From: Escherichia coli
GTDB lineage: Bacteria; Pseudomonadota; Gammaproteobacteria; Enterobacterales; Enterobacteriaceae
Direction: 5' to 3' (one strand)
Assembly (NCBI RefSeq): GCF_050920415.1
Contig: NZ_CP169309.1
DNA: 64,000 nucleotides
The stretch's first letter is position 1. Each line of letters opens with the position of its first letter. The notes beneath the pieces were generated by a model. It was not told the DNA's origin. It saw nothing but the letters and a program-made list of their open reading frames with translations, and ran no database searches. The position numbers and the translations under genes were made by a program. Below are positions 7,961 to 48,819 of this stretch, in pieces.

Positions 7961-7988
7961 CAAAAAAGCACTGCCTAAGCAGTGCTTT
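7961..7988 (-). terminator. Intrinsic terminator downstream of mepS
   Basis: Perfect hairpin aaagcactgc/gcagtgcttt followed on the minus strand by a T-run. Confidence 0.6.
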
Positions 7989-8034
7989 CAGTTAACTCGT
8001 CAGGATAGCCAAGGGATTGCATCCAAACGGTTTA

Positions 8035-8601
8035 TTAGCTGCGGCTGAGAACCCGGCGTGCTTCGTTGTAACGCTTCTTCCAGTACGGTTCATTCATGCT
8101 GGAAATAATAACACCACTGCTGGTGGAAGCATGGACAAACTGATTGTTGCCGATATAAATACCGACATGGCGTCCCGTTGAACCGGCGCGGAACAGAACT
8201 AAATCACCCGTACGCAAATTACTGCGGGAAACAGATTTACCCATTTCCTGCTGTTCGTAAGTCGAACGCGGAAGTTCTAAGCCAAATTGCTCACGGAATG
8301 TACGCTGTACGAAACCAGAACAATCGATACCTTTTTTAGTGCTGCCGCCCAGACGATAGCGTACGCCTTTCCAGTCAGCATACTGATCCATAATTCGCGA
8401 TTTTACGTCGACATTACGAACCAGGTTTTCAAATTCATCCTGAGAAGCTTGCAGTGATGATGTTTCACTACCCACTGCACGTGTCTCAGGATGCATATTC
8501 TTTGCGGTGTTATTTGCACTACATGCAGAAAGCAGAACCGCTACTGCAATCGCGGGGATCCCGCGCAAGATATATCTCAAAATCGGTTGAGATTTGACCA
8601 T
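8035..8601 (-). CDS. mepS: Murein DD-endopeptidase MepS (Spr), NlpC/P60 lipoprotein
   Basis: 188 aa, lipoprotein signal LSAC, NlpC/P60 catalytic Cys context DCSGFV. Confidence 0.9.
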
Positions 8602-9013
8602 GTTGTTTGTTTTCCCTTGAAGTCCTTAACGACAAATATCGTTATAAAAAAATGCCAAGCGACACGAGACTAATTACCTGGGCATGTTGAAACAATTCCT
8701 TAAGGCCAAATCTGTGGACTAACGCACAAAATTATATGCTGTGAGGATAATCTACCGCCGAGGCAAAACGAGTTCGAGATTACCCGATTGGTGCGGTCTT
8801 GGCGAGTGGTTTTACATGATTTTTTATAAGAAAAAGTGATACAGAAAGTTAATAAGCGGGATTGGTCAATTAAAGTACGATTGAGTGAAACGCATACAAT
8901 CCATTCATTTACTTAGGGAATGATTTTTGTGTTCGATGAAAGAAAGCAAAGGCGCACATCATCAGGAATATCCTTACTATAAAAATAAACCTGATGATGT
9001 TAATTACCGTGAG

Positions 9014-9727
9014 TTATTTGTTTTGGAAATGTTTGTTTTTTCCCGGTAGTGATTTGTCAAAAAAGGTGATTAATCGATCACTTAATGGCGTCAGCAACAT
9101 CCAGGGCAAACCAATCAATATCACGGTCATCGAACCAACAATGATGTCAGTAAACCAGTGTGCACCAATCATTACTCTGGGAAATGCAAAAACCACAAAA
9201 ATAATAAGGGCGATAAGGCCTGCGACTTTGCCGAAATAACGCCACATGAATGCCGAAAAAATAAGCAGCATCATGCCGTGATCGCCGGGAAAGCTGTCTC
9301 GTGAGGCATCTTTCGTGGGGATAGGGAGCAGTTCGCTGACGCGGTTAATATTGGCAAAAGTTAATGTTGGGCTGGCCCGTTTTACAGGAATTAATGCCTG
9401 TCCCAGTTGGTTTAAGACCACTGCAGTTAATAGCATGACGAGGCCAATAATCACGATACGTCGTCGGCCTGGGGCGTTTTCTTTCAGCCAGAAACTCAGC
9501 ATCAACATTCCCATTGCCAGCAGTGAACAACCGTCGAAGGCACGATTATTGGTCAATGCAACCAGCCACAAAAAGGCCTTACTTTCGACCAGTTTCTGAT
9601 TAAAAAAATAAAAAATATCCGCATCAATCGGCAACCAGAATCCATGATTAACGGGAATATACCAGGAAAGAAACAGCGCGAGGCCGACAATATTCAACAA
9701 CACTATTTGCGGCAAATTTTTAATCAT
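9014..9727 (-). CDS. lpxT: Lipid A 1-diphosphate synthase / undecaprenyl-PP phosphotransferase, PAP2 family
   Basis: ORF 9014..9763 trimmed to MIKNLPQIVLLN start (237 aa); polytopic membrane protein. Confidence 0.85.
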   Translation of the reverse strand: MIKNLPQIVLLNIVGLALFLSWYIPVNHGFWLPIDADIFYFFNQKLVESKAFLWLVALTNNRAFDGCSLLAMGMLMLSFWLKENAPGRRRIVIIGLVMLLTAVVLNQLGQALIPVKRASPTLTFANINRVSELLPIPTKDASRDSFPGDHGMMLLIFSAFMWRYFGKVAGLIALIIFVVFAFPRVMIGAHWFTDIIVGSMTVILIGLPWMLLTPLSDRLITFFDKSLPGKNKHFQNK

Positions 9728-42125: not shown

Positions 42126-42141
42126 TGTGAGTGATTTCACA
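42126..42141. promoter_or_regulatory. CRP binding site of mglB promoter
   Basis: TGTGAgtgattTCACA, perfect match to both CRP half-sites. Confidence 0.7.
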
Positions 42142-48535: not shown

Positions 48536-48819
48536 GTGATCTTCCTTAATGCTATGAGTAATTAAGGCGAACGCTAAATATACTCGTCATACTTCAAGTT
48601 GCATGTGCTGCGTCTGCGTTAGCTCACCCCAGTCACTTGTCGCCTTCCTGCAACTCGAATTATTTAGAGTAAATATTGCGTGCTGATATTAAGGCTAAGC
48701 GTGTGGGGAAATTTAAACTGTGAAAGAATTCACAAATAGCTGCGGTTCAGAATGTTATATCCGCAGCTTATTGACTGAAGTAATAATTATTCTCAATAAT
48801 TAACAGGGGAGGGACAATA

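Follow-up and report, generated by a model that had tools for sequence, protein, structure and literature searches.

The lpxT-mepS spacer of Escherichia coli is probably a composite of ordinary, mostly already mapped regulatory parts

The window, by which we mean the whole 64,000-nucleotide stretch of Escherichia coli DNA that was analysed, carries on its minus strand the gene order yeiR, lpxT, spacer, mepS, pdeN, which matches that of K-12. Its sequence here agrees at 100% identity with that of strain 2013C-4282 and at about 97% with those of most other strains, and the identities of lpxT and mepS are backed by RefSeq annotation of both the 100% identical strain and K-12; the annotation places no feature inside the spacer. 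The spacer occupies positions 8602 to 9013 (412 bp; the K-12 counterpart has 411 bp), bounded by the mepS ATG at 8601-8599 and the lpxT stop codon at 9016-9014, and its GC content is 37.6% compared with 50.4% for the window, so that an earlier note made from the sequence alone had its limits, its length and its AT-richness right. The same note had called the spacer ORF-free, which holds in substance, as the gene strand has no ORF of at least 20 aa wholly inside it and no ORF is conserved; several ORFs of 20 to 40 aa are present on the plus strand. The two boundaries are:

9014-9016, minus strand: lpxT stop codon (TAA), from the ORF list and RefSeq annotation
8599-8601, minus strand: mepS start codon (ATG), from the ORF list and RefSeq annotation

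A MepS-based scan yielded 80 loci from different Enterobacteriaceae species, with lpxT lying upstream in 79 of them. Spacer lengths are 410 to 426 nt in most genera, with a full range of 320 to 441 nt; lengths of 320 to 367 nt are seen in some Phytobacter, Leclercia, Silvania, and Pluralibacter loci, and a few genera have 434 to 441 nt. The length is thus kept although the distal third is poorly conserved in sequence. In contrast, there is almost no variation in the proximal ∼260 nt (8860-8602) among 80 species (81 sequences), and between the window and K-12 there are no differences in the last ∼240 nt before the ATG, the differences being clustered just after the hairpin described below.

The earlier note supposed that the spacer holds the mepS promoter region, and this is borne out by two published promoters, the upstream P2 and the downstream P1. 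For P2, Mendoza-Vargas et al. (2009, PMC2760140, supplementary table) mapped a start site of spr (mepS) at -169, with 17 nt between a -35 hexamer CGCTCGCCA and a -10 hexamer GGTAATCT. Elgrably-Weiss et al. (2024, RNA 30:124, PMC10798246) place the two promoters 109 nt apart, with P2 more active in exponential and P1 in stationary phase. The P1 start is put at about -60 from the numbering of the OxyS site in that paper (G37-G47 in the short mRNA and G146-G156 in the long one) together with the P2 start at -169. The promoter features are as follows:

8818-8851, minus strand: conserved block upstream of P2 (-81 to -48), from the conservation profile of 81 sequences
8777-8805, minus strand: mepS promoter P2, with -35 TCGCCA (8805-8800), a 17-nt spacer, and -10 TAATCT (8782-8777); hexamers conserved
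8769-8770, minus strand: P2 transcription start, -169 from the ATG, ±1 nt
8667-8695, minus strand: mepS promoter P1, with -35 TTGTTT (8695-8690) and -10 TAGTCT (8672-8667); hexamers placed from the inferred start site, and conserved
8660-8661, minus strand: inferred P1 transcription start, at about -60

The window carries the same locus as that described for the mepS (spr) P2 and P1 promoters and OxyS, with the P2 hexamers and the OxyS site with its C(-18) identical. According to the literature, transcription of mepS starts from these two sigma-70 promoters downstream of the hairpin, P2 following a strongly conserved A-tract block and P1 lying inside the P2 leader. The block, TAACTTTCTGTATCACTTTTTCTTATAAAAAATC, is ∼90 to 100% conserved in 80 species; its A-tract looks like an UP element, and there is no factor assigned to its TTTCTGTATCAC part. 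Two other promoter candidates in this part of the spacer were set aside. The block itself, read as TTAACT-18-TATAAA at 8852-8823, has a -10 without the final T, and a perfect TATAAT at about 8746-8741 is specific to E. coli, reads GAATAAAT in other genera, and has no start site in the sources consulted; we take it to be the A/T flank of the dyad considered next.

Between P2 and P1 lies a further element for which we offer a base-level candidate:

8713-8728, minus strand: CRP-type dyad TGTGcgttagtcCACA, centred at about -60 from P1 and +50 from P2

The pattern TGTG-N8-CACA is present at the same position in all 82 loci, with invariant arms and a variable centre. Its core, TGTGC-N6-CCACA, agrees with TGTGA-N6-TCACA at eight of ten positions, including all of TGTG and CACA, although it lacks the A and the T of TGTGA/TCACA and its centre falls at -59.5 or -60.5. 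At class I CRP sites, such as that of lac P1, the centre is at -61.5. The dyad resembles such promoters in its TGTG-N8-CACA spacing, in its A/T-rich left flank, in its distance of ∼60 bp from a downstream promoter with higher activity in stationary phase, and in the in vitro binding of CRP near spr detected by SELEX; it differs from them in its core, in the position of its centre, and in that the candidate site is transcribed within the P2 leader, where its arms could equally form an RNA helix of 4 to 5 bp. The binding evidence is that spr is among 119 new cAMP-CRP targets found by genomic SELEX (Shimada et al. 2011, PLoS One, PMC3105977), a SELEX-chip method whose resolution does not pinpoint the site. 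The dyad at 8728-8713 is most likely the CRP site behind this SELEX hit; with its centre ∼60 bp ahead of the P1 start, it would serve as a class I site for the activation of P1. A 2023 table gives no regulator for mepS, and our search of the literature on mepS with lpxT, PhoB, ProQ, or CRP returned nothing site-specific beyond the SELEX list. Across the 64-kb window the CRP-type pattern occurs four times, with 1.04 expected. We note that perfect TGTGA-N6-TCACA cores are present at 42126-42141 (galS-mglB, in the mglB promoter region) and at 48719-48734 (preT-yeiS, upstream of preTA), the former lying in an intergenic region with a known CRP site.

The last 60 nt before mepS, comprising a small hairpin, the OxyS site, and the ribosome-binding site, are nearly invariant, and it is here that, according to the literature, OxyS represses translation. 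The leader features are:

8627-8644, minus strand: small leader hairpin UAACGAU...AUCGUUA, just 5′ of the ribosome-binding site, from the RNAalifold consensus
8612-8625, minus strand: OxyS pairing site GGACTTCAAGG, which includes C-18, overlaps the Shine-Dalgarno sequence, is invariant in 45 species, and is identical to the published site
8605-8607, minus strand: counterparts of two 3′ ends mapped by Term-seq in K-12, 6 and 4 nt before the mepS ATG (Adams 2021, supplementary files 1 and 3)

The published account (PMC10798246) has OxyS pairing through its loop A with 11 nt at the mepS ribosome-binding site, including C(-18), and reports validation by compensatory mutations, C(-18)G in mepS with G30C in OxyS; we place the 11-nt pairing at 8625-8615 of the window. 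The inner pair of the small hairpin covaries (UA, UG, and CG, with both sides changed in six sequences). The two 3′ ends just before the ATG (K-12 2269973 and 2269975) were found in all three growth conditions and scored as not Rho-dependent (Adams 2021, PMC7815308); there is no hairpin directly upstream of them, and candidate origins are cleavage by an RNase, a cut guided by an sRNA, or a stable fragment of the 5′ UTR.

At the other end of the spacer is the element that had drawn attention to it. The earlier note reported a 10-bp inverted repeat, catcatcagg at 8957-8966 and cctgatgatg at 8990-8999, separated by 23 nt and about 15 bp past the lpxT stop; the repeat is exactly as described, and it begins, by our measurement, 13 to 14 nt after the stop codon. 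Perfect pairing in fact reaches 11 bp (8956/9000), and with mismatches allowed the arms extend to 21 nt around a 3-nt loop:

8956-9000, minus strand: lpxT 3′ stem-loop, whose perfect outer stem has 11 bp (9000-8990 paired with 8966-8956) and whose inner stem, closed by a 3-nt loop, is AU-rich

The repeat exceeds chance, with a perfect arm of at least 11 occurring in only 13 of 2,000 dinucleotide shuffles of the spacer, and the minus-strand RNA folds at -24.9 kcal/mol (z = -5.3; none of 200 shuffles was as good). K-12 differs from the window at three positions of the inner stem (aligned sequences, read by eye), where U.U mismatches become G-U and U-A pairs and one U-A becomes U-G, giving a continuous stem of ∼20 bp. 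The hairpin is present in 5,425 of 5,426 complete E. coli genomes, at a median of one place per genome and always at this locus, and this single-copy occurrence rules out a dispersed repeat or mobile element (REP, BIME, or MITE). The allele in the window (8945-9010) is a rare one, with at least 99% identity in only 18 of the 5,425 genomes and 80 to 95% in the others; the differences cluster in the inner part of the stem and immediately 3′ of it.

Comparison across the family bears on whether the repeat works as RNA or as DNA. Of 81 Enterobacteriaceae spacers, 70 have a hairpin of -12 kcal/mol or below no more than ∼100 nt beyond the lpxT stop, with a common core, CAUCAGGGAUC-loop-GAUCCCUGAUG, and the sense strand folds more stably than the antisense strand in 52 cases versus 24, an excess that fits G-U pairs in RNA. 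In an alignment of 43 species, 86% of cells in the 10-bp main helix are paired, and compensatory changes on both sides are seen at nine of the ten pairs; the covariation score and the paired fraction were matched by none of 500 shuffles, and the count of extra pair types by three of 500. Pairing falls from 80% to 25 to 46% when the partner is slid by one to three columns, and the distance between the arms varies between genera while the pairing stays continuous. Covariation, variable arm distance, and sense-strand stability together argue for an RNA stem on the sense strand of lpxT and mepS, and not for a DNA operator with two half-sites.

How transcription of lpxT ends at this stem-loop is less simple. 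The earlier note had suggested that the spacer contains the lpxT terminator. The 3′-end mapping that bears on this is published for K-12, where Term-seq reports an RNA 3′ end just after the hairpin, at 2269627 on the plus strand, with a score of 1323 in LB at OD 0.4 (Adams et al. 2021, eLife, PMC7815308, supplementary file 1); it is a weak peak, detected in one of three growth conditions. Each entry of the table prints the 50 nt before the end and the 10 nt after it, a layout that we checked with the 2269975 entry and the mepS ATG. Carried over to the window, the end falls as follows:

8954, minus strand: equivalent of the K-12 Term-seq end 2269627, 3 nt after the stem, mapped via the window/K-12 alignment

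The mapped end reads ...CCUGAUGAUGCGC, also given as ...GAUGAUGCGC, and has no U residues there. The suggestion of a terminator is supported, with the qualification that the E. coli hairpin is without a canonical U-tract: the 8 nt after the K-12 hairpin contain one U, and five or more U in the 8 nt after the stem are found in only 15 of 81 species. A simple consensus terminator scan did not call the lpxT hairpin. Kluyvera, Klebsiella, Siccibacter, and Atlantibacter have textbook terminators with U-tracts at the homologous position. The ∼100 nt after the hairpin contain 25% C and 14% G, a rut-like composition that would suit the loading of Rho; the bicyclomycin data for K-12 (Adams 2021, supplementary file 2) include no Rho-termination region between 22694xx and 22699xx, where low lpxT expression may limit detection. 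We also note a textbook intrinsic terminator 3′ of mepS itself, at 7964-7989 on the minus strand (GAAAGCACTGCTTAGGCAGTGCTTTTTTGTTTT), which coincides with a published Term-seq 3′ end (K-12 2270620) and contrasts with the U-less hairpin of lpxT.

Because the U-tract is lacking and the mapped end lies at the base of the stem, 'terminator' may in E. coli mean a stem-loop that defines or protects the 3′ end. In our reading, the inverted repeat would form the tail of the lpxT (yeiR-lpxT) message, folding 13 nt past the stop codon into a stem-loop that is long and AU-rich. Polymerase would stop at this stem-loop or a little way beyond it, whether through weak intrinsic termination or because Rho acts on the C-rich, G-poor tract downstream, and 3′-to-5′ trimming back to the base of the stem would set the mature end. 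The stem-loop would thus both define and protect the 3′ end of the lpxT mRNA. This arrangement resembles the stem-loop-protected 3′ ends of transcripts terminated weakly or by Rho that Dar and Sorek described (2018, NAR, PMC6061677) in having a stable stem-loop soon after the stop codon with no adjoining U-tract, an RNA 3′ end at the stem base, and C-rich, G-poor sequence downstream; it differs from them in that no bicyclomycin-sensitive region is called at lpxT and in that the E. coli stem is unusually long (∼21 bp) and AU-rich. With canonical intrinsic terminators it shares a strong hairpin after the stop codon whose stem covaries; it departs from them in the missing U-tract in K-12 and most genera, in a 3′ end outside any U run, and in an E. 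coli stem that is AU-rich and not GC-rich.

The segment between the stem-loop and the P2 block is the one part of the spacer to which we can assign little:

8852-8953, minus strand: variable C-rich, G-poor segment, with a Pho-box-like remnant (8942-8925) and a conserved island, AAATGAATGG

Among 81 sequences, positions 8953-8852 are poorly conserved except for small islands, and the 5′ arm of the hairpin is moderately conserved. In 40 of the 81 Enterobacteriaceae spacers there is a direct repeat of the form nYGTCAn-N4-nYGTCAn, some 341 to 347 nt ahead of the mepS ATG (loci L007-L079, for example L011:2160-2177), in genera that include Citrobacter, Enterobacter, Lelliottia, Kosakonia, Phytobacter, Kluyvera, Yokenella, and Trabulsiella. 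Its best form is CTGTCAT-TCTC-CTGTCAT, and CTGTCAT-N4-CTGTCAT matches the Pho-box consensus of PhoB. The distance of the repeat to the mepS ATG is fixed (-341 in Citrobacter, Enterobacter, Kosakonia, and other genera), its distance to the lpxT stop is variable, and ∼11 to 12 nt after it there is a TAAAAT- or TATAAAT-like -10 together with a palindrome, ATTCAT-N7-ATGAAT. Escherichia has only degenerate forms of the second half-site and of the -10 (CTTTCATCGAACACAAAA). These patterns may reflect a PhoB-type distal promoter of mepS that has been lost in Escherichia; a literature search returned no link between mepS and PhoB.

Taken together, we read the spacer, with a probability of about 85%, as a composite of ordinary regulatory parts on the minus strand, most of which had been mapped before: the stem-loop at the 3′ end of lpxT, the P2 and P1 promoters, a likely CRP site, and the OxyS-targeted leader. 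The earlier note judged 412 bp to be long for a terminator and a promoter, an impression that the published mapping does not uphold: ∼60 nt are taken up by the lpxT 3′ UTR and stem-loop, ∼85 nt by the P2 promoter and its upstream block, and 169 nt by a leader that contains P1, the CRP-type dyad, the small hairpin, and the OxyS/RBS site, so that only the ∼100 nt of the variable segment (8953-8852) are left over. The main parts have been mapped experimentally before and are already known; what is added here is comparative support and a base-level candidate for the CRP site.

Other accounts of the hairpin deserve consideration alongside this one. The most plausible is that it is a fully functional canonical Rho-independent terminator of lpxT, releasing transcripts at the hairpin with neither Rho nor trimming; in favour of this, it is very stable, it sits 13 nt after the stop codon, and Kluyvera, Klebsiella, Siccibacter, and Atlantibacter carry U-tract terminators at the homologous position, and in the allele of the window a weak 3-bp outer helix (GGU/GCC) puts the stem beside UUUGCUUUCU, which has six U in eight. 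K-12, however, has no U-tract, its mapped 3′ end lies 3 nt past the stem and outside any U run, the consensus scan passed the hairpin over, and the stem is kept without a U-tract in most genera, so we regard this account as possible but doubtful. We give less credence still to a role beyond the end of the gene, in which the hairpin would be a recognition element (for example, for a 3′-end-binding protein such as ProQ) or a regulated Rho-dependent insulator, coupled with a decayed third, PhoB-type promoter of mepS in Escherichia; specific recognition is suggested by the sequence conservation of the CAUCAGGGAUC/GAUCCCUGAUG stem core across many genera, mostly without a U-tract, but the combination seems unlikely. 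A DNA operator, with half-sites CATCATCAGG and its complement bound by a dimeric factor controlling mepS or lpxT, could explain the perfect dyad with its 23-bp centre and the retention of CATCAGG in the arms in many genera, yet it fits poorly with arm spacings that range between genera from 3-nt loops to 23 nt with continuous pairing, with compensatory arm changes (CTATCAGGG/CCCTGATAG, CAGAG/CTCTG, and CAAGG/CCTTG), with G-U pairs that favour the sense RNA, and with a nearest mapped promoter that is ∼190 bp downstream of the repeat; we consider it very improbable.

The remaining accounts concern additional functions in the spacer. The 169-nt mepS leader is unusually conserved, Term-seq ends lie just before the ATG, and PMC10798246 reports a predicted sequestration of the OxyS site within the long mRNA, all of which could suggest a cis-acting structured RNA such as a riboswitch, thermosensor, or attenuator. 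RNAalifold applied to the P2 leader of 45 species nonetheless gives three short hairpins only, with almost no covariation (covariation term, -0.42 kcal/mol); an Rfam scan of the spacer at E-values up to 10 returned only chance-level eukaryotic matches far below gathering scores; the conserved blocks fall on the P1 hexamers, the dyad, and the ribosome-binding site; and the 3′ ends before the ATG were scored as not Rho-dependent. Promoter elements, factor sites, and the sRNA/RBS region give the best account of the conservation, in preference to a large structured RNA, which we think has a small chance of being present. We hold the chance of a hidden sRNA or small-protein gene to be slighter again. 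Such a gene could be driven from a promoter-like TTAACA-16-TATAGT within the hairpin (9003-8976), a 10/12 match to sigma-70 that is followed by an ATG-started 17-aa ORF (8962-8909), and an orphan start ∼370 nt upstream of mepS could be absent from the published two-promoter description. Against this, TTAACA-16-TATAGT is the only match in the 2 kb scanned, fewer than the 3.6 obtained from shuffles, and its -10 hexamer is not conserved outside Escherichia, and we reject it as a promoter. The 17-aa ORF is frameshifted between the window strain and K-12 and is intact in none of 76 other species, Rfam offers no match, and the Term-seq tables have no 3′ end between 8954 and 8607 that would fit an sRNA. 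More broadly, ATG-started sense ORFs of at least 12 aa are intact in none of 76 non-Escherichia species, and outside Escherichia neither strand retains any ATG-started small ORF; the only ORFs that persist are short TTG-start ones in invariant DNA, including an 11-aa sense ORF (8709-8674) that is intact in 32 of 76. We reject the small-protein gene on the K-12 frameshift and the lack of conservation across species.

On our reading of the spacer as a composite of known parts, the finding has little importance beyond annotation and holds nothing surprising to specialists. Were the less likely recognition or insulator role of the hairpin true, the element would set both the stability of the lpxT mRNA and the amount of upstream transcription entering the mepS promoters. 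MepS is a key peptidoglycan endopeptidase under tight level control, and a base-level map of what lies upstream of its gene, comprising the lpxT 3′ stem-loop, the P2 upstream block, a CRP candidate for P1, and the leader hairpin together with the OxyS site, is useful for research on the control of cell-wall growth. That the dyad and the -81 to -48 block are invariant throughout the family suggests additional candidate transcriptional inputs.
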